Source: an uncultured archaeon
GTDB lineage: Archaea > Thermoplasmatota > Penumbrarchaeia > JASLWR01
Length of the DNA: 50,114 nt
Direction: 5' to 3'
Assembly: GCA_964430885.1 (NCBI GenBank)
Contig: CAYSHM010000008.1
Span: 73,254 to 123,367 of the forward strand
Below, piece after piece: positions 24,082 through 35,874 of the stretch. The notes beneath the pieces were generated by a model. That model had not been told where the DNA came from, ran no database searches, and saw only the letters and a program-made list of their open reading frames with translations. Position numbers and translations under genes: made by a program. Every line of letters begins with the position of its first letter. The stretch's first letter is position 1.

Positions 24082-24774
24082 TCATAATTTTGAACCGCAG
24101 GCCTCGCAAACAAGCCTCTCACCAATAAGACTTATCTTTTTGACCGGCGCACCGCAGTGAGGGCATTCAGTTATATCCCTCTGATGGATCAATCCCTTCT
24201 CTGTGAAGAATTCTCCGGTTTCCCGATCAAAATATCCGACAATATAATTCTCCTCAATTGCACCCAATATCATTTTCAGTGCTTCCTGTTCGTTAACGTT
24301 CATCTTCTTTGCCATCTTTACGATTCCCACCCTTCTGTAAGCACCTAGAAGTTTTGCCATCTCCTTGAGTTTCAAAGCATTTCGGGCCATGAACTCTCCG
24401 GTTTTCCTATTAAATTCTCCATCAATGATATTGCGCCTAATGCATACTGTTATGGTCTGTTCGGCCTGAAACTCAGAGACATTCATCTTTTGGGCCAAAT
24501 TGGACACCTTAATCCTCTGGTATCCCTTGATCATCTCACCTATCTGTTTTAAACGTCTAGCCCTTAGAAAAAGAGCTCCGCCTATCAATAGAAGAACCAT
24601 ACCTCCACCTAGACCGACAATGGAACAGACCCCAAACATATTGAAGAACCCACCCTCATCCATGGTTAGGAGAGCCATAAGCAGACTCACGCCACCAAAA
24701 AAGAAGCCGGCTAAAGAGAAGAACAGAACCGCCCATCCGTCTCTCCAGAAATCCACAGGATCTATTTTGGGCAT
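24082..24774 (-). CDS. Membrane protein with two tandem PCI-like winged-helix repeats and a C-terminal zinc ribbon
   Basis: 2 N-terminal TMs; repeats YQRIKVSNLAQKMNV..IDGEFNRKTGEF and YRRVGIVKMAKKMNV..IVGYFDRETGEF; CPHCG..CEACG. Confidence 0.8.
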   Translation of the reverse strand: MPKIDPVDFWRDGWAVLFFSLAGFFFGGVSLLMALLTMDEGGFFNMFGVCSIVGLGGGMVLLLIGGALFLRARRLKQIGEMIKGYQRIKVSNLAQKMNVSEFQAEQTITVCIRRNIIDGEFNRKTGEFMARNALKLKEMAKLLGAYRRVGIVKMAKKMNVNEQEALKMILGAIEENYIVGYFDRETGEFFTEKGLIHQRDITECPHCGAPVKKISLIGERLVCEACGSKL

Positions 24775-24831: not shown

Positions 24832-25338
24832 CTATTTATTCCAATTGTTGTATCGGACCCGGTCCAGCTTAAAGATATTCTTGGGCAGTTTATCCTCATC
24901 GGGATAGCCAATTGGAATCATCGAAAACGGGATAATATTTTCCGGAATATCCAGAAGTCCTCTGATACCAGCTACCCGATCAGGTCTCGGATATACTCCC
25001 AGCCACACGCCTCCCAAACCCTTGTCAGCTATTGACAGAAGTATATTCTGGGTTGCTGCGGCGCAATCCTGTATCCAGTAGCCTTGGCTTTTAACAAGGT
25101 CCATATCGGCGCATACCAGTATTGCAGCCTGAGCGGTTCGGCACATTTTTGATGAGGGATGAACATTGGGAATATTATCCAGCACTTTGCGGTCATCGAT
25201 CAGAATGAAATGCCAGGGCTGCTGGTCCATGGCTGATGGTGCATTCATACCTGCCTTGATAAAATTCAATACCATTTCTTTCGGCACATGTACATCCTTG
25301 AATTTCCTGATGCTTCTGCGTTTGAATATTGTTTCCAT
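24832..25338 (-). CDS. Nitroreductase family protein
   Basis: RRSIRKF, APSAMDQQPWHF, QDCAAATQNILL, GLGGVWLG, IPIGYP. Confidence 0.95.
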   Translation of the reverse strand: METIFKRRSIRKFKDVHVPKEMVLNFIKAGMNAPSAMDQQPWHFILIDDRKVLDNIPNVHPSSKMCRTAQAAILVCADMDLVKSQGYWIQDCAAATQNILLSIADKGLGGVWLGVYPRPDRVAGIRGLLDIPENIIPFSMIPIGYPDEDKLPKNIFKLDRVRYNNWNK

Positions 25339-25379: not shown

Positions 25380-26786
25380 TTACCGAATGAAACCCTCTAG
25401 GGCTTTTTTGAAGGGTTCCTTTGCGGCCATTAATACGCCTGCACCAACCTGTCCGACACCCGGTTCCCTATGGGCAACACCGGTATCAATGAAAGGTGTG
25501 ATATCTTTCTCCACCACCTTTATGATATCTATACCTGTAGGCGTACCCCTGAAATTGAGATACGGTATCTGGTATATGTTGTTCTCTCCAACGGATATCT
25601 CATACATCTTAAGGGTATATTCATTGGCGTCACTTGAGCTGCCCCCCACGAACTGAACAATGGCCGGTGAAGCTGCAATGGCAAATCCCCCCAATCCGTT
25701 GGTCTCGGTGATGGAGCTGTCGCCGATATCCGGGTTGGCATCCTCCTTTCGATATCCTGGAAAGAAAAGGGCATCGGGTACCGGTGCCTTTCCCGTGAAC
25801 CATTTATCTCCGGTCCCGGATACCTGGATTCCGAAATCAGTTCCATTCCTGGTCATGGCTGTAACCATGGAGCTGTTCCTTATATTCCTTGCCGCATCCA
25901 GGGTCACCTTGCATGCAGGCATGGATAGGTTCAGGAAAAAATGATCATTGCCGTCTATGAAATTCAGCACGGCCTCGGCATTTTCCCTACTGTCCGCTGT
26001 CCTTAGTATGTGCGGAGCTATCTTCCTGTAGAAAAGAGAGGTGGCCGCCCTGTTCCTGTTGTGAACCTCGTCACCCATGTGCAGGGATTGAGCTATGATA
26101 TTCTTGATATCAATTGGGCCGCAACTCTCCAATGCTTTTCTAAGATTGGGATATAGGACATTTTCCATCCACTTAAGCTTCGTTATCACTTCAGGCCCGT
26201 AAGCTCCATATCTTAGAACCTTTCCCAGGCCCTCGTTCATTGTACAGTAAGCTTGGTTTCCGAATTCTGCGTTCTTCAAAACAAATACCGGCATGGAGGG
26301 GGATACTATACCGGCCATAGGGCCCACGGTATTGTGCTCGTGACAGGGTGAATATTCAATGATACCTGAAGATCCCAGGGCCTCGGCGTCCTCCTTATTA
26401 TAAGCCCTTCCCTCATACATCAGGGCGCCTATAATGGCTCCCCTCATTGGTCCGCACATTCGGCCCCAACCGATGGGTGGACCTGCGTGAAGAATGGTGT
26501 CTTCCGACAATCCGGGAATGACCTCCCTGGCCGTGGATAAACCCACCAGTTCCGGTTTGCCCTTCAATATCCTCCCTAAAGCTTCTCCATTCGCCTGTTC
26601 TATCATGGCCTTTTTATCCTCAGATATGCTATCCAGTAAATCAACCATCCTACTGTCCCCTCCTGCCCGGGGTTTCCAATCTACCTGTAAGGATTCACCG
26701 CCACTTTCTCTTATACCCTGATTGAATCCCTCCAATCCCATATTAACAACCTTTAATCCATCCTTGAACAAATTGCTTTTTGTCAT
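25380..26786 (-). CDS. DUF1116 protein (YahG/YlbE, oxamate carbamoyltransferase subunit AllG-like)
   Basis: LHAGPP, PCHEHNTVGPMAG, NEGLGKVLRYGAY, MGDEVHNRN, NDHFFLN, RNGTDFGI, DIGDSSITE, GVAH..PGVGQVGAG. Confidence 0.93.
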   Translation of the reverse strand: MTKSNLFKDGLKVVNMGLEGFNQGIRESGGESLQVDWKPRAGGDSRMVDLLDSISEDKKAMIEQANGEALGRILKGKPELVGLSTAREVIPGLSEDTILHAGPPIGWGRMCGPMRGAIIGALMYEGRAYNKEDAEALGSSGIIEYSPCHEHNTVGPMAGIVSPSMPVFVLKNAEFGNQAYCTMNEGLGKVLRYGAYGPEVITKLKWMENVLYPNLRKALESCGPIDIKNIIAQSLHMGDEVHNRNRAATSLFYRKIAPHILRTADSRENAEAVLNFIDGNDHFFLNLSMPACKVTLDAARNIRNSSMVTAMTRNGTDFGIQVSGTGDKWFTGKAPVPDALFFPGYRKEDANPDIGDSSITETNGLGGFAIAASPAIVQFVGGSSSDANEYTLKMYEISVGENNIYQIPYLNFRGTPTGIDIIKVVEKDITPFIDTGVAHREPGVGQVGAGVLMAAKEPFKKALEGFIR

Positions 26787-26790
26787 GTTA

Positions 26791-28374
26791 TTACACCCCC
26801 TTCTCCAATTTTCCTTCCATCAACTCATATATGACCAACGCAGACAGCCTGCAGGCTTCATAGTTTGAATTCATAACAACTGCCCCTGCCCTCTCCAGCT
26901 CCCGAGCGACCTTGGACCTGTTCTGCGGATCCATATCAGTCCCGGTAACCGAACATATTACTGATATTTTGGTGTTTCGGGTTCCTGCTATCTCCTTTAC
27001 CTCTTCAAGGACCGGGACCAGTTCTTTCCCGGGATCCATATTGGAACCGTAACCCAGAACAACATCCAGAAGAATAACCGCTACCTCAGGATCCATTGCT
27101 TCTGCCAATATACGTTTATTCCTGAGTGTGTAATCTATCATTGGGTGTGGTCTCCCCCTTGTAAATTCATCCTCACCCAGATCCACAACGGTATTCCCCA
27201 TGCTTTTCCAGGGATCACTTAGTTCATGTTCCTTATTAGCGGATATATTGCAGAAAACAGAGGAAACTACACCTTTGAATGTAATCAGTGCTTCGTGGCA
27301 GAAGGTCCCGCCGCTGAAGAGGCCTCTCAGATACTTCTGGCCGAGTGATGAACTGCCGGCAATTTCCTTAGCCTTGATTTCGAGCTTTTCTTGTCCCTCC
27401 GGGTAACGATCGGCTGAAACCTTACCATATTTAGACAGTTCCAGCGCTTTGATCGCTGCTCCTTCAAGAGTATCAGAAAAATAATAATTCAATTTGGGTC
27501 TATCCTCAATTGTTTCACCCAGGTACACAGCCACAACTGGCTTATCCAGCTTGGATATCAGATCATCTATCTTGATCACAACATCCCTGTGAGGAGGTTT
27601 GGATACAATTGCTATTACCTGGGTTGCCGGATCCGATGCCAGGAGTTTGATCCCTTCAATGGTCATCAATCCTCCAACCTCTTTCTTGACATCCCGTCCT
27701 CCTGTCCCTATGGCCTGAGAGATCCCTCCGCCCATGTTCGAGATCAAGGTGCTGACCTCCTGCAGACCTGTTCCTGAAGCTGCCACCAGTCCAATATTTC
27801 CTCTATTGACCACATTAGCAAATGCAAGAGGTATTCCGTTTATTATGGCGGTCCCGCAGTCTGGACCCATGACGAGCAAACCCTTGTCCCTGCCTAACTT
27901 CTTCAGTTCCACTTCATCATCCAAACCGACATTGTCAGAGAACAGCATGACATGAAGACCAGCTTTTAATGCCCTTCTTGCTTCTCCGGCGGCATATTTA
28001 CCGGGTAATGATATCAGGACCATATCTGAATCAGGATTTTCCTCAAGGGAATGGTCCAATGAATAATACTTTTCCTCATTCACAGTGCTCTTCTTCTTCC
28101 GCACCTCATCCAAAAGATCAGGAACGCTCTTCAAGGCCATACCCAGAGAATCCATATCATGGGCCTTTACCGCTACCAGAAGATCGGTATCATCGGTTTT
28201 CTTGAAATCATTCAATAGAAGTCCCGCTGATGAGAGGATTGACATGTTCTCCCTGGTACCCATTACAACAGCGGCATCCTCAATCCCGGCCATTTCCGAG
28301 ATCATTCTAGCTACATTCATCAAGGTCACTGAATCGAAATATTCTCCTTTCATTATCTTACTGCCGTATTCCAT
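26791..28374 (-). CDS. fdrA: FdrA/YahF acyl-CoA synthetase-like protein (oxamate carbamoyltransferase subunit AllF-like)
   Basis: YFDSVTLM, HVMLFSDNV, VMGPDCGTA, ASGTGLQE, AIGTGGRD, GLFSGGTFCHE, DLGEDEFTRGRPHPMID, LLDVVLGYG. ATG 28374 follows GAGGTGG. Confidence 0.95.
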   Translation of the reverse strand: MEYGSKIMKGEYFDSVTLMNVARMISEMAGIEDAAVVMGTRENMSILSSAGLLLNDFKKTDDTDLLVAVKAHDMDSLGMALKSVPDLLDEVRKKKSTVNEEKYYSLDHSLEENPDSDMVLISLPGKYAAGEARRALKAGLHVMLFSDNVGLDDEVELKKLGRDKGLLVMGPDCGTAIINGIPLAFANVVNRGNIGLVAASGTGLQEVSTLISNMGGGISQAIGTGGRDVKKEVGGLMTIEGIKLLASDPATQVIAIVSKPPHRDVVIKIDDLISKLDKPVVAVYLGETIEDRPKLNYYFSDTLEGAAIKALELSKYGKVSADRYPEGQEKLEIKAKEIAGSSSLGQKYLRGLFSGGTFCHEALITFKGVVSSVFCNISANKEHELSDPWKSMGNTVVDLGEDEFTRGRPHPMIDYTLRNKRILAEAMDPEVAVILLDVVLGYGSNMDPGKELVPVLEEVKEIAGTRNTKISVICSVTGTDMDPQNRSKVARELERAGAVVMNSNYEACRLSALVIYELMEGKLEKGV

Positions 28375-29267
28375 TTCTCCACCTCGCACCTCATCATCAA
28401 TATAAATCCAACAGCCACATCCACACCTGAACTGCTGCCATGTGAGGTAATTGCGCGGGTCGTATTATATATTTCCCCCCTATCAATACCTAGTATGAAA
28501 TTCATTAGTTCTTTGAAGGGCTGATTGAATCTTCCTTTGTATGCATGATATAGGAACTCATTGCTTATTGGATTATTACCCCTGGACCCTCGGAATATCC
28601 GACACCTGAGATCTCCCAGGTCCGACCCGTTGATAATCCCCCGAATATAAAGGGCCATAAGCATACCCGCCAGAACATCATCGCCCGAAGGGGTCAGACC
28701 AACTCCTAACCCCTTGATCCCTTCAATATGTTCCCCTATTTCACGGCCTCTGCTATTTAGAAGACCCGATACATTTTTTCCCAATATTCCGATGAGTTGC
28801 TCATGAAATGTCCCTCCTTCATGCAGACCACCGGGTGATAAAAGGGATAATGTAGGGATCTCCCCCGCTATATCTTCCAGATAGCTTTGGAATATTGTAA
28901 GCCGTTCATAAAGACGTTTCCAATAATCTTCAGACCCCCCAAAATCGGACCTATCGGTACGGCCAGGGGAATTGTATTCCAAACGGGAATTGTATATAAA
29001 TCCAGGATTTATCTGATATTGTTCATCTCCCAGAATTAGGTAATCCTTTGTGACCGTAATATCACCCCTAAATACTTTACCCAGAGATGTCACGACCACA
29101 TTCACAGGACCGGCCCTGGCCCTTGGGACGACAAAGGATAATAAACGATCACCATTGTGGAAATTCACCGCTTTTTCAAACCGGGAGAGGAGAGAATAAT
29201 CCCCATTTTCTATCAAATCACCCCAGGATAATATGAATTCATCTCCCCTTTCACCAGATTGGTTCAC
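28353..29267 (-). CDS. DUF2877 protein (YahE/YlbF, AllH-like)
   Basis: SRFEKAVNF, GLGVGLTPSGDDVLAG, HGSSSGVD. GTG follows GAGGTGA; overlaps fdrA. Confidence 0.9.
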   Translation of the reverse strand: MNQSGERGDEFILSWGDLIENGDYSLLSRFEKAVNFHNGDRLLSFVVPRARAGPVNVVVTSLGKVFRGDITVTKDYLILGDEQYQINPGFIYNSRLEYNSPGRTDRSDFGGSEDYWKRLYERLTIFQSYLEDIAGEIPTLSLLSPGGLHEGGTFHEQLIGILGKNVSGLLNSRGREIGEHIEGIKGLGVGLTPSGDDVLAGMLMALYIRGIINGSDLGDLRCRIFRGSRGNNPISNEFLYHAYKGRFNQPFKELMNFILGIDRGEIYNTTRAITSHGSSSGVDVAVGFILMMRCEVEKWNTAVR

Positions 29268-29430
29268 TGGATCACCTCATTAATGAATATACGAATAAAT
29301 TTCTCCACTAACAGCAATATTAACTATTGAATTTTATAAATCAGATACGGAATAATTCATTAAGAACCATATTTATAGGTTGTAATCCTTAGCTGAAGAA
29401 ATTAATTTACGAATAATGGAGGAACATTTT

Positions 29431-30126
29431 ATGGATATGGAATTGGAAAATATGCTCAGACCGCCTGAGATCAAGATGCCGGATTATCCCCCGAAAGTGA
29501 TAACACTGGCCAACGGTAAGAAACTGGTTGTTAGACCTGTTCAGAGAAGGGATGTCCCAAAACTGCTACCCTCTGTCAGACCAACACTAAAAATTGCACG
29601 GGACTTTTACAATGTAGTGGGCTCCAGAGTTTACTCTGAATTACTTGCCTGGCAGTACCATAGGCTCCGTAACGGATATACTTTGGTGGGCCAAATAGAT
29701 AACGTTTTGGTAGGGATTGTAAACGGCAGAATGTACGATGAGAAGATCGGTATCAGCCTCCACACCCTGGCCATTTCCAGGGGTCTTAGGATAGGTGCCC
29801 ATCTGTTCGCAGCCAAGATGGAACATCATATCGAATACCTGAACCAGGAAGAGGTATGGATAACTGCTGAATCACCCATCGGTTTCCGTAGATGGATGAT
29901 CGAGTACGAGCTTATTGAACAGGAAGGAGTTCAGCACGAACTGGGCGGGGCTCAATCCTTTAAATTGACCCGTGAACTGTATTTCAAACATAAACCTCGG
30001 CTGGTTGCAGGTACCAGACCCTGTCCGGAAGATCTTCTGGAAAAGGCCAGATCCGAGTTCAAATTTGCTGATGAAAAGACCATCAGCGAACAGATATGCG
30101 GAGCCAAGGGGGCAAGGAAAAAATGA
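29431..30126 (+). CDS. GNAT-fold putative acyltransferase
   Basis: TLANGKKLVVRP..D, LVGQIDNVLVGIV, acyl-CoA-binding-like HTLAISRGLRIGAHLF. ATG 29431 follows GGAGG (track start 29416). Confidence 0.7.
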   Translation: MDMELENMLRPPEIKMPDYPPKVITLANGKKLVVRPVQRRDVPKLLPSVRPTLKIARDFYNVVGSRVYSELLAWQYHRLRNGYTLVGQIDNVLVGIVNGRMYDEKIGISLHTLAISRGLRIGAHLFAAKMEHHIEYLNQEEVWITAESPIGFRRWMIEYELIEQEGVQHELGGAQSFKLTRELYFKHKPRLVAGTRPCPEDLLEKARSEFKFADEKTISEQICGAKGARKK

Positions 30127-31313
30127 GAAATGTAGCCATCATCGGAGCGGGAATGACCGATTTCGGCCGGCTTTTCAACGACACCCTTATGGATATATTA
30201 TCATCAGCTGCATTGCGGGCCATGGACGATTCTGGTATTGATCCAAAGAAGATACAGGCAGTCTATGTAGCAAATATGGGCGGAGGAATCCTGAACCACC
30301 AGACTGGTGTTGCAAGTGCCCTGGTTGATAACCTGGGACTTATTCCGGCTGCAGCAGAGACTGTTGAGAACGGGCCAGCTTCCGGTGCATCTGCCATAAA
30401 GAACGGTCTTCTTGCAATTGCTTCAGGACATTATGATTACGTGCTTGTTGTTGGTGGGGAGAAAATGAGAGGGGTATCAGGCTGGAGAGCCACCGATTTC
30501 GTGGCCACACTTACTCATCCAGAAGGTGAATACAAATATGGAATAACCCTGCCGGGCATGGCTGGAATGTTCGCGGATCTGTATATGGAGAAATACGGGT
30601 ACACAAGGGAACATCTCGCCAGGATGGCAGTCAAGAATCACAAGAACGGTCTTCTAAACCCCTATGCACATGTGCATATGCCTCCCAGCATGGAGGGTAT
30701 CCTTGAATCACCTGATGCCCCCTACAATAATACGCCTGTTGCTGAACCGCTTCACCTATGGGACTGCTGTCCGGTAAGCGACGGAGGAGCTGCTGTTCTG
30801 CTGTGTGCTGAAGAAATGATCAAGAACAAGGAAAAGAAACACTATGTAGTGATATCAGGATTTGGTCAGGCAACAGACACCCACACCCTGGCTGAAAGAG
30901 AGGACCCTACAGATCTGAAAGCCGTCACAATGGCAACAAAACAGGCCTATGAAATGGCAGGAGTAGGGCCGAAAGACATAGATGTTGCTGAGCTTCACGA
31001 CGCTTTCTCCATACTCGAGATAGCTGAATCCGAACATGCTGGACTTTTTGAAAAAGGCGGTTACAAGAAGGCCTTGGAGAAAGGAGATGTTGAAATAGAC
31101 GGAAAGATGCCTATAAATCCTTCAGGGGGTTTAAAGTCCAGAGGACATCCTGTTGGTGCTACTGGTGTTGCCCAGGCGGTAGAGATGACCTGGCAGCTCA
31201 GGGGTGATGCCGGGGACCGGCAGGTAAAAGGGGCAAACATAGGTCTTACCGTTAACTTCGGAGGCTTCGGCAACAATGTAGTTTCCTTTGTCATGAAGGG
31301 GGTGAAAAAGTGA
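30123..31313 (+). CDS. Thiolase-fold (SCP2-type) protein lacking the canonical catalytic cysteines
   Basis: VAIIGAGMTDFG, VENGPASG (vs ENACAS), GGEKM, KNHKNG..NPYAH, DCCPVSDGGAA, ELHDAF, INPSGGLKSRGHPVGATG, NFGG. ATGA overlap with the upstream gene. Confidence 0.93.
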   Translation: MRNVAIIGAGMTDFGRLFNDTLMDILSSAALRAMDDSGIDPKKIQAVYVANMGGGILNHQTGVASALVDNLGLIPAAAETVENGPASGASAIKNGLLAIASGHYDYVLVVGGEKMRGVSGWRATDFVATLTHPEGEYKYGITLPGMAGMFADLYMEKYGYTREHLARMAVKNHKNGLLNPYAHVHMPPSMEGILESPDAPYNNTPVAEPLHLWDCCPVSDGGAAVLLCAEEMIKNKEKKHYVVISGFGQATDTHTLAEREDPTDLKAVTMATKQAYEMAGVGPKDIDVAELHDAFSILEIAESEHAGLFEKGGYKKALEKGDVEIDGKMPINPSGGLKSRGHPVGATGVAQAVEMTWQLRGDAGDRQVKGANIGLTVNFGGFGNNVVSFVMKGVKK

Positions 31314-31648
31314 ATCGAGCTGTGGGATATAAATGTACCAAATGCGGAAAACCTACCTATCCCAAGAGGGATGTATGTCTTAAGTGCGGTGGAAGAGAAT
31401 TCGCTGAACTTCAATTTCCTAAAACCGCTACCATTATCGCCTTCACGAATGTACACCAGCTTCCCTGGGGTATAAACGAACGATTCCTTACATTGGGCGT
31501 ATGTGAATTCGAGAACGGCCTAAAAGCTATGGGTAGGATAACTGCCCCTACAGTTAAGAAAGGCCAGAAGGTTAAGGCCCATTGGAAGCTTTTCAGGGAG
31601 ATGGCTGGTGAGGATGTCTGGGGATGGATATTCGAACCCACCCGCTGA
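31310..31648 (+). CDS. DUF35 / ChsH2-like Zn-ribbon OB-fold protein
   Basis: GYKCTKCGKPTYPKRDVCLKCG followed by OB-fold strands. GTGA overlap with the thiolase stop. Confidence 0.92.
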   Translation: MNRAVGYKCTKCGKPTYPKRDVCLKCGGREFAELQFPKTATIIAFTNVHQLPWGINERFLTLGVCEFENGLKAMGRITAPTVKKGQKVKAHWKLFREMAGEDVWGWIFEPTR

Positions 31649-31742
31649 TACCTGTGTAATAATTCCAACATATCAGGTCAGCTTGAGATAGATCGACTAC
31701 CATTGAACCCCTCTGAAATGACAGGGGTTCGATATTTATTTT
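31644..31742 (+). terminator. Two hairpins + T-tract after DUF35
   Basis: GCTG(AT)ACCTG..CAGGTCAGC (31644-31682) and TTGAACCCCT..AGGGGTTCGA (about 31703-31732), followed by TATTTATTTT. Confidence 0.55.
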
Positions 31743-31762
31743 CTGAATTCAGGTGAACCAAA

Positions 31763-32751: not shown

Positions 32752-35700
32752 ATGTTCTTCAGAAAAAGCCTCGGTTTATCCCTCTTATTGCCCACGTTGA
32801 TAATCACAGGATTGATATTGTTCTCATATTCTCCATTGATTGACTCATTTGATCATATGAAAGGTTCCTATAATGACTCTAGGGATTCCCGATTATTTAT
32901 TGAAAATTCTGCATTATATGAACAAGAGGAGATGACAGGAACCAGGGACAAGGTTGTTATTCTGAATGATCCAACAATGATCCATGATAATTCAGGTGAT
33001 ACCGTAGAGGCAATGTGTTCTGGGGATTTCAACAATGACGGTTTCAATGATATTGCCTACGGTACCCATTCCTACTCCGATTCCCCAAAGGTGCTGGTGT
33101 CAATGGGATCAGCCGGAGGTCTAACCACTCCATCCCTTCTCATTGATGTATATGATGAGGGCGACATTCCTTCAATCTGCTCTGGAGATTTCGACAATGA
33201 TGGATTTGATGACCTGGCAATCGGTACATACCCACATGCCAATGTCCTGATAAGCATGGGGTCCAACAGCGGATTGGACAACCCCCAGGTGATAGCCAAT
33301 TACAGTGCCTCACTGTTCGGAATATACGGGATGTGTTCTGGGGATTTCAACAATGATAACTTTGATGATCTTTTCTATGGACCCTTTTCCAGATCCCTGC
33401 AAGCTCCGGTCTACAAAGCCATGGGAGGTGCAGGGGGACTTGGAAATCCTTCGGTCCTTGCTACAATAAACGATATGATGCTTTTCGGATTCAGTTCAGG
33501 GGATTTCGATAATGACGGCTTTGAGGACGTTACCTTCGCAGGTGCCACCTACGATAACATCTTTACAGCTTACGGAGCCGCTGGAGGTCTTGAGGTCCCG
33601 ACCAAACTGGGTGACTCACAGGATCATGTATATACTTCCACATGCTCCGACTTCAACCTTGATGGGTTTGATGACATATGTTACGGAATTGCAGGAGGCG
33701 GGATCTATCATTCAATGGGATCGGGAAATGGATTGGATGCGCCGGCTCTGACACAGAACACCGGCCAGAGCGGGGTTTGGGGCTCAGCTTCAGGGTTTTT
33801 TGATTCAGACAGCTATCCTGATGCAATTATGGGTTCTACATCAAATGGAAGGATATATCTGGTATCCGGTGGACCAGGGGGGGTTTCCGGGACTTCCTTA
33901 TTCCACACATACGCTTCACAGGAGAATATAAAATCTCTCAGCGGAGGCGATTTTAACAATGACGGGGGAGATGACCTCTGTTTCGGGACCTCTCCGGACT
34001 GTTTCCTTTGCCAGTGTCTGGGGGAATCAAACTATATTCCCACCGCTCCAGAGAACATTCAGCCCGATTCTGCTCATGAATGGCCAGTTACCATATCTTG
34101 GAATGCCTCCTTTGACAAAGATCAGGAGGAAATAACATACCATTTGGACATAGGAACTTCACCAGGTGGAAACGACATTCTGTCCGACGGACAAACTGTC
34201 AATACTCATTTACAGATATATCTGGAACCAGATGACTATCATATCACCATTTCCGCCCATGACGAAACCGACGGAGCTTCAGATGAAACAGAACATGCAA
34301 TAAGCATAGTAAATACACCGCCAACATCTCCAACTCTTGATATTCATCCCGACCAGCCCAGAACCGGAAATGAGCTGATATGCGCTATTGCTGAAGACTG
34401 CGAAGACAGCGATGGGGACGATATATCTTATTATTACAGATGGTATTCTGACGATGTTGTTGTTGGTTCGCTTTCTATGGATGATACTCCTCTTAAACAA
34501 TCAGCAGTACCTGATGAACACACCTCAAAAGGTGAAACTTGGAAATGTGAGGTATGGGCATATGACGGATTCCAGAATGGCAGTTCTTCAGAAATTGAGG
34601 TAACCATATTGAATACACCACCAAATCCAATAATTTATTCTATAGAAGAAGAGGATGTTTTTCATTCACGCTCGGTCAATCTATCAGCTTGGGGTTCCTG
34701 GGACCTGGATAATGATGATCTACAGTACCAGTGGACGTCGGATGTGGACGGAAATCTTGGAAGGGATATGAATATATCCGCCGAACTATCCAGAGGTCAG
34801 CATCTGATAACTTTAGACCTAACTGACGGGGATGCTATCAGACAGCTAAGCGTTAATATTTCTGTTTCAACCCCTCTGCTGGATATTCAGGAACCGGAGC
34901 TTGTAGAGATCGAGCAAATTGACGAGCTGATTCAGGGGAACAAATATCATATAAGTGTTGTAGTTTCAAATTCTGGTAATTATATTGCCCAGGGAGTGAT
35001 GCTGACCCTGATAGATAACGAAAAGGTTCTTGATAACAAAATGATAAATGTTCAATCTCAGGAAGAAGAAAGTGCAATCTTTGATTGGACCCCTTCGGAT
35101 GCCGGCCCCCACGATATCCTGATAGAGATGTCATATGATAATGAAGACATTGTCTCGGATTCCATTTTCCTATCAGCAGCTCTCAGAGATGACGGTCCTC
35201 CGGATCCTCAGGCTGGAATGGATATCAGTGTAGAAGTTGGTGAGGAATTCATCCTTGACGCTTCCGGAACCACAGACCCTGATACCGACATCAAGGATCT
35301 GGATTTCTTCTGGGATTTCAATGATAAGGATGGAATAGATATTGATTATAAAGGGATCTCAACCACGGTGAAATATGAAGAAACCGGAATTTATATAATA
35401 ACATTATCCGTTTCTGACGGCTATAACAATATCACTGACACCCTGACAGTTACAGTGAAGATCAAAGATCAAGGGACTGGGGACGATGATTCTACCGAAG
35501 ATGATAATGATGATATTAGTGGGGATGATGACACATCTGGAGACGACGATACTTCAGAAGATGATGATGTATCTGGGCCTGGCAGCACGGGAAAGAAAGA
35601 TAATAATTCGGGAGAGGAAAGCAGTGCCATTTCCGGATTCTGGTGGATGATTATCATCATAATTATTGTCATGTTCACAATATTGATGATCCTGGTTACC

Positions 35701-35874
35701 ATTTTTATTCGGATGAATAGCAAAAAGGGAAAGAGGGATGATGATGGGGAGGATATAAGTTTTGTTGATGCTGAGGTAAATTCACGGGAATATGTGAACA
35801 AGTCACCCAGAAGAGGTATTGTCATATACGAAGCTGAGAACCCTGAAGGAAATGATATTAAAAAATCACGCTGA
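32752..35874 (+). CDS. Membrane-anchored FG-GAP (7-blade) surface protein with Fn3/Ig, PKD and CARDB-like domains
   Basis: Seven GDFxxDGxDD-type motifs; ISWNASFDKD..YHLDIG; SWDLDND..YQW; VSNSG..FDWTP; DASGTTDPD..WDF; GDDD-rich spacer; C-terminal TM. Confidence 0.88.
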   Translation: MFFRKSLGLSLLLPTLIITGLILFSYSPLIDSFDHMKGSYNDSRDSRLFIENSALYEQEEMTGTRDKVVILNDPTMIHDNSGDTVEAMCSGDFNNDGFNDIAYGTHSYSDSPKVLVSMGSAGGLTTPSLLIDVYDEGDIPSICSGDFDNDGFDDLAIGTYPHANVLISMGSNSGLDNPQVIANYSASLFGIYGMCSGDFNNDNFDDLFYGPFSRSLQAPVYKAMGGAGGLGNPSVLATINDMMLFGFSSGDFDNDGFEDVTFAGATYDNIFTAYGAAGGLEVPTKLGDSQDHVYTSTCSDFNLDGFDDICYGIAGGGIYHSMGSGNGLDAPALTQNTGQSGVWGSASGFFDSDSYPDAIMGSTSNGRIYLVSGGPGGVSGTSLFHTYASQENIKSLSGGDFNNDGGDDLCFGTSPDCFLCQCLGESNYIPTAPENIQPDSAHEWPVTISWNASFDKDQEEITYHLDIGTSPGGNDILSDGQTVNTHLQIYLEPDDYHITISAHDETDGASDETEHAISIVNTPPTSPTLDIHPDQPRTGNELICAIAEDCEDSDGDDISYYYRWYSDDVVVGSLSMDDTPLKQSAVPDEHTSKGETWKCEVWAYDGFQNGSSSEIEVTILNTPPNPIIYSIEEEDVFHSRSVNLSAWGSWDLDNDDLQYQWTSDVDGNLGRDMNISAELSRGQHLITLDLTDGDAIRQLSVNISVSTPLLDIQEPELVEIEQIDELIQGNKYHISVVVSNSGNYIAQGVMLTLIDNEKVLDNKMINVQSQEEESAIFDWTPSDAGPHDILIEMSYDNEDIVSDSIFLSAALRDDGPPDPQAGMDISVEVGEEFILDASGTTDPDTDIKDLDFFWDFNDKDGIDIDYKGISTTVKYEETGIYIITLSVSDGYNNITDTLTVTVKIKDQGTGDDDSTEDDNDDISGDDDTSGDDDTSEDDDVSGPGSTGKKDNNSGEESSAISGFWWMIIIIIIVMFTILMILVTIFIRMNSKKGKRDDDGEDISFVDAEVNSREYVNKSPRRGIVIYEAENPEGNDIKKSR

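Follow-up and report, generated by a model that had tools for sequence, protein, structure and literature searches.

The subject of this report is a trio of overlapping genes in a 50,114-nt stretch of DNA from an uncultured archaeon (contig CAYSHM010000008.1; hereafter the window), which encode a GNAT-fold protein (ORF1), a thiolase-like protein with proline at the position of the nucleophilic cysteine, and a small DUF35 protein. We found that the trio is a fixed, conserved unit and that it belongs to a conserved module made up of AllFGH-like genes, a xanthine dehydrogenase (XDH)-like enzyme, a PF04199 hydrolase and a uracil-type permease. The reading that we favor, at a probability of roughly 0.4, is that the three proteins constitute one heteromeric, coenzyme A (CoA)-dependent enzyme at the end of an anaerobic nucleobase-catabolic module, where it would convert the malonyl-type C3 remnant of uracil to acetyl-CoA. 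Coordinates are those of the window, and the trio lies on its + strand.

Gene anatomy and conservation of the trio

The trio and its landmarks are laid out as follows.

29418..29422, + strand: Shine-Dalgarno-like GGAGG, 8 nt 5′ of the ORF1 ATG (29431), read from the sequence
29431..30126, + strand: ORF1, a 231-amino-acid GNAT-fold protein, its start backed by homolog N-termini (MDMELE)
30123..31313, + strand: thiolase-like gene, 396 amino acids, SCP2/archaeal type (PF00108, PF22691)
30375..30377, + strand: CCA codon of Pro85 at the nucleophilic-Cys position (alignments to 7yvy and 6esq)
30669..30734, + strand: thiolase residues 183-204, including a clade-specific insertion; predicted ORF1 docking surface (alignment gap and complex model)
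30996..31007, + strand: HDAF motif, retaining His292 and with Ala in place of the acid/base Cys of SCP2 thiolases (sequence and alignments)
31310..31648, + strand: DUF35 gene, 112 amino acids, GTG start (PF12172, PF01796)
31702..31746, + strand: terminator-like hairpin, an 11-bp GC-rich stem (31702-31733) followed by a U-rich run to 31746 (folding)

As the original prediction stated, the genes are joined by ATGA (30123-30126) and GTGA (31310-31313) overlaps and are closed by a terminator-like hairpin. The hairpin region gave a z of -2.69, with an equally good fold in 1 of 200 shuffles; a simple terminator scan limited to loops of up to 8 nt found none 3′ of DUF35 because the loop of this hairpin is 10 nt. 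An alternative ORF1 start at ATG 29416 has no backing from the homolog N-termini, which begin MDMELE. One RNA run contained a single 169-nt contig inside ORF1 (29932-30100), at most a hint that the gene is transcribed.

The thiolase-like protein possesses both thiolase domains, N-terminal (PF00108, 6.4e-31) and C-terminal (PF22691, 8.8e-44), and scored 420.3 bits against NF004720 ("thiolase domain-containing protein"; cut-off 420). Its nearest solved structures are 7yvy (3e-83) and 6esq (3e-79), and in alignments with them its VENGPASG stands opposite IEAACASG and VEAACASG, respectively, Pro85 replacing the nucleophilic Cys of the C-x-S motif. The acid/base Cys (HDCF or C-x-G) is absent as well, with HDAF and NFGG (residues 378-381) in its stead. 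These two motifs and the lack of C-x-G had also been put forward as anomalies; they are present as described, although 7yvy likewise has HDAF despite keeping its Cys, and N[IV]GG forms the end of 7yvy and 6esq alike in the alignments. Since a Cys-bearing relative has HDAF, neither this motif nor the missing C-x-G is peculiar or disqualifying by itself, and the sole true catalytic anomaly is the change of Cys to Pro with its adjacent Asn-Gly.

Both [VI]ENGPASG and HDAF were present in 120 of the 120 listed homologs (66-78% identical, the protein itself aside). An alignment of 20 sequences with a mean column identity of 79% had E82-N83-G84-P85-A86-S87, H292-D293-A294-F295, G341-H342-P343 and N378-G381 invariant; these include the two oxyanion-hole histidines, H292 (HDxF) and H342 (GHP), which the protein had correctly been said to retain. 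The data of the same study include a contig, from a third sample, that spans 30271-30612, Pro codon included, with zero differences (two further runs contain the whole trio stretch but may be its source). Together with the Pro in 120/120 homologs, this contig excludes an assembly error at the Pro codon, which had been named as a possible refutation. Because Pro85 is invariant across the clade and the Cys of HDCF is missing, classical acyl-enzyme thiolysis is implausible, in agreement with the original prediction. In the same samples, a contig of 7042 nt from another organism matched only two conserved thiolase stretches (30489-30517 and 31257-31279); it probably represents the thiolase gene of a relative and no variant of the trio locus.

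Two other accounts of the thiolase-like protein bear directly on these residues. It is very improbable that the protein is a genuine thiolase with a relocated Cys, namely Cys215 or Cys216 of DCCPVSDG: C216 is invariant in the 20 sequences, yet 6esq has Cys at the position of C215 and uses the canonical nucleophile, the acid/base Cys is missing too, and a classical type-II thiolase is encoded elsewhere in the genome (C6:58605-59381, 346.7 bits). A retro-aldolase of the Ltp2/Sal type, or another beta-hydroxyacyl-CoA lyase, is also improbable, if slightly less so. PMC12329534 describes steroid side-chain aldolases in which Ltp2 lacks both cysteines and Sal keeps one, and it gives the motif classes as HDCF for SCP2 thiolases and as YDHF and YDCY, with a catalytic Tyr, for aldolases. 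ChsH2(DUF35)-Ltp2 and Shy-Sal resemble the trio as thiolase folds with non-thiolase catalytic residues complexed with DUF35, and 6ok1 matches the thiolase-like protein at 3.4e-30; they differ in their catalytic Tyr, in the fusion of DUF35 to a hydratase and in having no GNAT partner. Where YDHF and YDCY carry the Tyr, HDAF has His. The protein was therefore rejected as a member of the Ltp2/Sal aldolases, and the analogy with Ltp2 drawn in the original prediction fails on the motif that defines the group (PMC12329534). Moreover, the DUF35 protein of the trio is a free 112-amino-acid protein, not fused to a MaoC hydratase, and no MaoC, hydratase or steroid genes were found among the conserved neighbors.

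ORF1 matched no Pfam or NCBIfam family at E≤0.01, and thus no curated GNAT sequence model. It has 2840 homologs; all of the best 120, which were listed, have an empty Pfam field ("-"), and one bears the source name "GNAT family". The top non-self homolog is 80% identical and the aligned subset 66-80%, and an exhaustive search of 50%-identity representatives returned only 168 matches, many of them fragments, so that the family appears to be tight. An AlphaFold2 model of ORF1 (pLDDT 88.8, pTM 0.86) gave 186 Foldseek matches in the PDB at E≤1e-3, the listed ones being nearly all GNAT-superfamily acyltransferases with a probability of 1.00. In VIA-align the best Z was 12.8 (root-mean-square deviation 2.9 over 160 residues), and the top 50 matches were GNAT-fold acetyltransferases or GNAT-type toxins; language-model neighbors also pointed to GNAT. 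The label "GNAT" is accordingly one of predicted fold.

Across 24 diverse members of the ORF1 family, S109, H111, G122, K129 and G151 are invariant, and R66, R78, R100, T112, E131, E147, S148 and H169 nearly so. The pyrophosphate loop in motif A of GNATs reads Q/R-x-x-G-x-G/A; ORF1 has R117-G-L-R-I-G122-A, with Arg at the expected middle Gly and R117, G118, L119 and G122 invariant. GNAT-fold malonyl-CoA decarboxylases exist (MCD and the CurA GNAT) and have a catalytic His/Ser-Thr pair; among ORF1 residues of these types, S109 and H111 are invariant and T112 and H169 nearly so. The decarboxylases' absence among the listed top Foldseek and VIA-align matches to ORF1 is no evidence against a decarboxylase role.

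The spread of the trio was followed in two scans. A genome scan seeded by ORF1, with one genome per species, was repeated with a closer alignment after a diverse ORF1 alignment had offered no stretch conserved enough, and gave 336 confirmed loci, of which the best 80 were read for neighbors. All three genes occur in the same order in 73 of these 80, and the other seven loci reach contig ends 30-1544 bases after ORF1. A metagenome scan seeded by the thiolase gave at least 532 confirmed stretches, the best 80 of which were kept; motif counts in this set are circular, the motif itself having been the search pattern. ORF1 lies directly upstream of the thiolase in 64/64 metagenome loci with at least 700 bases of room, and DUF35 directly downstream in 70/70 with at least 345 bases. 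Copies from Chloroflexota, Cloacimonadota and one archaeon are 60-80% identical. The adjacency of GNAT and DUF35 genes to ENGPAS thiolases, which the original prediction proposed to check, is thus near-obligate. The exceptions came from a sample of 201 genomes from the class of G041, an Anaerolineaceae-labeled metagenome-assembled genome (MAG), in which ORF1 occurs in seven genomes, the Pro-thiolase in seven and both in six. One genome (G194, locus L186) has a 59%-identical thiolase (IENGPASG, HDAF), DUF35, AllH and the cyclase without ORF1, and another (G060, locus L196) has a 39%-identical ORF1 homolog between cyclase and permease without thiolase and DUF35.

A predicted ternary complex

The DUF35 protein matched PF12172 at 33.6 bits and PF01796 at 21.6 bits, the latter below the cut-off of 27.1. 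Four cysteines (C9, C12, C23 and C26) are invariant in 19 sequences, and the protein consists of a C4 zinc ribbon and an OB fold. A complex was modeled from alignments of the thiolase, DUF35 and ORF1, with ORF1 as the scored partner. The ipSAE values were 0.79, 0.80 and 0.80, compared with 0.00 for the best of three controls; the calibration mark, reached by 58/80 complexes of solved structure and 2/110 mismatched pairs, holds only roughly for this model, as it was built with its own alignments and three chains, unlike those of the calibration. The partner had a pLDDT of 84 or more, and 95% or more of the contacts recurred between runs. The modeling that the original prediction had called for thus placed ORF1 on the thiolase/DUF35 pair, and the modeled position agrees with its suggestion that the GNAT takes the place of the HMG-CoA synthase (HMGCS) partner.

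In the model, ORF1 touches thiolase residues 12-20, 24-29, 32, 119-121, 213 and 221-222 and the 183-204 loop (at 183, 186-189, 191-193 and 196-204), together with DUF35 residues 56-58. Both 7yvy and 6esq have a gap opposite thiolase residues about 197-205, and residues 213 and 221-222 adjoin the SDG CoA region. On the side of ORF1 the interface comprises strand 24-29, the beta4-alpha3 loop and helix 118-127 (118-120, 123-124 and 127), and the C-terminal tail. In GNATs the beta4-alpha3 loop binds the pyrophosphate of CoA, and we infer that the CoA sites of GNAT and thiolase would face each other. The thiolase-DUF35 part of the model resembles solved complexes. We know of no solved GNAT-thiolase complex, and the predicted interface is therefore unlikely to reflect memory of one.

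In a rival reading, the thiolase-like and DUF35 proteins are non-catalytic scaffolds (a pseudoenzyme), with the GNAT as sole catalyst, either an acyl-CoA-dependent N-acyltransferase or a GNAT-type decarboxylase acting on a pathway intermediate. We consider this unlikely. Both catalytic Cys residues are absent from the thiolase-like protein, G060 has its divergent ORF1 homolog alone inside the same module, and malonyl-CoA decarboxylases of GNAT fold exist. In addition, HMGCS-linked thiolase orthologs lack the Cys in 12/12 loci (adjacency to HMGCS being established in the window's genome alone), so Cys-less thiolase partners are not rare. Against a scaffold, G194 keeps the Pro-thiolase and DUF35 without ORF1; H292, H342, N378-G381 and the whole VENGPAS loop are invariant; and the mean column identity of 79% exceeds what a pure scaffold would be expected to need.

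The putative nucleobase-catabolic module and the proposed reaction

The neighbors of the trio, which the original prediction had missed, are the best functional lead. Clustering of the neighbor proteins of the 80 genome loci gave the following conserved families.

PF04199 "cyclase" amidohydrolase: 64/80 loci, usually directly upstream of ORF1
AllG/DUF1116: 40/80 loci
XDH-family molybdenum large subunit: 40/80 loci
FdrA/AllF: 38/80 loci
XDH FAD subunit: 28/80 loci
XDH 2Fe-2S subunit: 24/80 loci
NCS2 permease, best match uracil permease: 13/80 loci
AllH: 12/80 loci
CN_hydrolase: 7/80 loci
Family III CoA-transferase: 5/80 loci
Cytosine-deaminase-like amidohydrolase: 3/80 loci
Uridine phosphorylase, above the equivalog cut-off: 2/80 loci, directly upstream of ORF1

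When only the 34 loci flanked on each side by 5 kb or more are counted, 32 carry the cyclase, 26 carry AllG, 26 carry the gene for the XDH large subunit and 25 carry FdrA. Uridine phosphorylase reached 291.3 bits in L003 (TIGR01718, cut-off 280.3), and the same cluster is upstream of ORF1 in L007. In an Anaerolineales subgroup (L037, L039-L041, L044, L050, L052, L054 and L070), aldehyde:ferredoxin oxidoreductase lies upstream of the trio in nine loci; a SatD-family gene and a gene for a 243-amino-acid protein of no known family are also upstream there, in eight loci each, seven of them shared with the oxidoreductase set.

The aerobic, oxidative degradation of pyrimidines proceeds by uracil dehydrogenase, barbiturase and ureidomalonase, and ureidomalonate is the ring-opening product of barbiturate in this pathway. 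The enzymes of family PF04199 hydrolyze aryl-formamides and lactams. The oxidative pathway is mentioned in PMC12507026, and the XDH-type hydroxylase and ring-opening amidohydrolase of the module would fit its course from uracil via barbiturate to ureidomalonate. The two differ in the ring opener, which has the barbiturase/AtzD fold in the pathway and belongs to PF04199 in the module. AllFGH is the oxamic transcarbamylase, and its known reaction is that of oxalurate to oxamate (PMC11326118). Oxalurate has its malonyl homolog in ureidomalonate.

Gene anatomy, conservation, the GNAT fold, joint inheritance with the module and model support for the complex are shown here, whereas in the route that we propose both the substrate and each reaction are inferred from these neighbors. 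Uridine or cytosine would be converted to uracil, which the XDH-family molybdenum hydroxylase would oxidize to barbiturate. The PF04199 amidohydrolase would open the ring to ureidomalonate, given the hydrolysis of aryl-formamides and lactams by its family. The AllFGH-like enzyme would then phosphorolyze ureidomalonate to carbamoyl phosphate and malonamate, in parallel to the formation of oxamate from oxalurate, and the trio would turn the malonyl-type C3 remnant (malonamate or a related malonyl unit) into acetyl-CoA. Within the trio, the GNAT-fold subunit may transfer the malonyl group from nitrogen (an amide or acylurea) to CoA. The thiolase-like subunit, unable to form an acyl-enzyme because Pro85 replaces Cys, may decarboxylate the malonyl thioester at its enolate-stabilizing His292/His342 site, or carry out some other enolate cleavage; a missing nucleophile combined with an intact His/His enolate site fits malonyl-thioester decarboxylation and not thiolysis. 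The decarboxylation would pull the GNAT transfer step forward, and DUF35 would clamp GNAT and thiolase around adjacent CoA sites. Such a linear route could account for all ten genes.

The same neighbors can be read differently. That the module degrades a purine or another N-heterocycle, with the trio handling a different acyl unit, is in our view unlikely. The XDH large subunit scores highest against XdhA (501 bits) and 4-hydroxybenzoyl-CoA reductase (496 bits) without reaching either cut-off or any other equivalog cut-off in NCBIfam; the permeases score under the uracil-permease cut-off; and the sole characterized AllFGH substrate, as far as the source cited above extends, is oxalurate, which comes from allantoin. 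On the other hand, no allantoinase, allantoate amidohydrolase or ureidoglycolate dehydrogenase was seen among the conserved neighbor clusters of the 80 loci, and uridine phosphorylase, above its cut-off, stands beside ORF1. The NCS2 permease fits uracil and RutG permeases better than xanthine permease, with uracil permease as its best match (355 and 232-234 bits, against 203 and 143-147 bits for xanthine permease), and oxalyl or oxamyl units have no alpha-carbon and would be outside the reach of a thiolase-type enolate site.

Modules without the trio offer a comparison. In the 201-genome sample, a full-length cyclase ortholog (at least 71% identity) occurs in 51 genomes, seven of them with ORF1. 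Ten of the 44 cyclase genomes without ORF1 were examined; one is G194, and the remaining nine are trio-less modules. In these nine, CN_hydrolase was found in six, family III CoA-transferase in five and a PF01039 carboxyltransferase in three (in two of the three directly upstream of FdrA), along with FdrA in five, AllG in six and the XDH large subunit in three. Acetate kinase adjoins the XDH genes in one trio-less locus, and a gene for a Bmp/PnrA-type substrate-binding protein of an ABC transporter occurs in two. To take malonamate via malonate and malonyl-CoA to acetyl-CoA would call for just such a set: amidase, CoA-transferase and (methyl)malonyl-CoA-type carboxyltransferase. In the sampled class, many genomes also encode a fusion of two PF04199-like cyclase domains, which is ~560-600 amino acids long and 43-49% identical to the cyclase of the module. 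One such gene (L186:16585-18243) lies a few kb from the module and adjoins a second, distant XDH set (about 30% identity), and another (L195:1351-3024) is directly beside the module's AllG; the double cyclase may belong to a paralogous pathway for another substrate.

Several observations weigh against the enzyme and substrate that we favor. All substrate names derive from gene neighbors, the XDH-like substrate is not fixed by the NCBIfam scores, and neighbors of pyrimidine type are few (uridine phosphorylase in 2/80 and the cytosine-deaminase-like protein in 3/80 loci). To our knowledge, there is no precedent for a GNAT run in the amide-to-thioester direction. The subunits of the trio can exist apart, as G194 lacks ORF1 and G060 lacks thiolase and DUF35, and the complex model carries the approximate calibration described above. 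Furthermore, the trio and the amidase/CoA-transferase/carboxyltransferase set co-occur in L022 and L024 and are not exclusive. Because these two loci carry both sets, and because 7/80 trio loci have CN_hydrolase, a simple replacement of the alternative genes by the trio is not proven; the loci compared also differ in flank length and share kinship.

A more specific version of our proposal is that the trio is the signature enzyme of an undescribed anaerobic, energy-conserving oxidative pyrimidine pathway. Carbamoyl phosphate would yield ATP in such a pathway, and an uphill exchange of amide for CoA thioester would draw its driving force from decarboxylation in a neighboring active site, to which a common CoA site would link it. 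We regard this version as doubtful, if conceivable.

The archaeal host and relation to known systems

Adjoining the trio in the window, and divergent from it, is a complete AllG-FdrA-AllH operon.

25380..26786, - strand: AllG/DUF1116 homolog (PF06545, 339.7 bits), 67-77% identical to Cloacimonadota cluster copies
26791..28389, - strand: FdrA/AllF homolog (NF004760, 497.1 bits, cut-off 433)
28353..29267, - strand: AllH/DUF2877 homolog (PF11392, 78.6 bits)

As in the known AllFGH system, the genes for FdrA, DUF1116 and DUF2877 lie together (25380-29267, - strand). That system differs in having an adjacent carbamate kinase (allK); the carbamate kinase of the window's genome is on contig C19 (366.4 bits, cut-off 358.25). 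A nitroreductase-family gene (24832-25338) is downstream of the archaeal operon. The cyclase and three XDH genes are on another contig (C10:100-4757), where the cyclase is 79-80% and the XDH large subunit 66-69% identical to the Cloacimonadota cluster orthologs. No family III CoA-transferase was found in the genome (91.6% complete), and its CN_hydrolases are only 33-34% identical.

The window is archaeal DNA: it encodes diphthine synthase (TIGR00522, 263.6 bits) 114 bases 3′ of DUF35, and the C10 cluster has a gene for a Trm1-family tRNA methyltransferase nearby. ORF1 was found in none of 40 relatives (3 of the same family, 33 of the same class and 4 of the same phylum; completeness 62-99%), and the closest trio homologs are in bacterial MAGs. 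For these two reasons the whole module was likely acquired laterally by this archaeon; the GC content of the trio region is not distinctive. A 230-amino-acid protein with a PCI domain (PF01399, 3.3e-12) is encoded elsewhere in the window (24082-24774, - strand) in this archaeal genome, and a 1040-amino-acid predicted surface protein at 32752-35874 (+ strand) has "SGDFDNDGFDD"-type repeats, a stretch of acidic repeats rich in D/S/T and, at its C terminus, a transmembrane segment.

A role of the trio in the mevalonate pathway was rejected, as the genome has its own separate HMGCS-thiolase-DUF35 operon (L002, G000:C24:43840-47994) and the context of the trio is unrelated. The thiolase of that operon also lacks the nucleophilic Cys (VEGGSAAGG, HDAY), and its orthologs in 11 same-class relatives (L174-L185 set) have Ser, Asp or Gly at the position. 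The trio resembles the HMGCS/thiolase/DUF35 complex in combining an SCP2/archaeal-type thiolase (6esq, 3e-79) with a small zinc-ribbon/OB DUF35 protein and a third enzyme, in its translationally coupled genes and, in the model, in the placement of the third subunit at the CoA-side loops of the thiolase. Unlike the trio, that complex has a third subunit of the HMGCS/KAS III fold, where ORF1 has the GNAT fold, and serves the mevalonate pathway; the trio has Pro for Cys and a nucleobase-catabolic context.

Other DUF35 systems are related more loosely. PhlC keeps its catalytic Cys, and so does BbsB. PhlABC and the streptococcal SmaATase, both Friedel-Crafts acylases, are likewise repurposed tripartite thiolase/DUF35 assemblies with rewired catalytic residues (PMC12960953), and 5m3k (PhlC) matches the thiolase-like protein at 1.1e-31; their third subunit is HMGS/KAS III-like and their context is biosynthetic. 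The benzoylsuccinyl-CoA thiolase BbsAB (7pxp; NF053628, NF053627) shares with the trio its thiolase-like and DUF35 subunits and anaerobic catabolism (matches at 2.1e-52 to BbsB and 1.5e-7 to BbsA), although NCBIfam and the PDB name BbsB as the subunit of a true thiolase, and a third subunit is lacking. In an archaeal fatty-acid synthase (bioRxiv 10.1101/2024.07.05.601840), DUF35 assembles a ketothiolase with other enzymes of CoA esters, but there the thiolase is active and is joined by a reductase and a dehydratase. A literature search, with most subscription journals outside its coverage, turned up no GNAT/thiolase/DUF35 complex, no such module and no anaerobic oxidative uracil pathway, which is in line with the original prediction, which knew of no characterized complex of this composition.

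DUF35-organized thiolase complexes are emerging as a general means of channeling CoA esters, in mevalonate synthesis, archaeal fatty acids, Friedel-Crafts acylases and steroid aldolases. To these the trio would add a partner from the GNAT superfamily and a thiolase with Pro at the nucleophile position, in a unit that is widespread by the count of both scans (336 genome loci from species representatives and at least 532 metagenome stretches). The module around it suggests an anaerobic route, as yet unstudied, by which bacteria of sediments and digesters handle pyrimidine bases, and the AllFGH family gains a possible second substrate. If the energy-conserving version of our proposal is true, decarboxylation-driven exchange of amide for thioester would be a type of reaction new to the GNAT and thiolase superfamilies alike.

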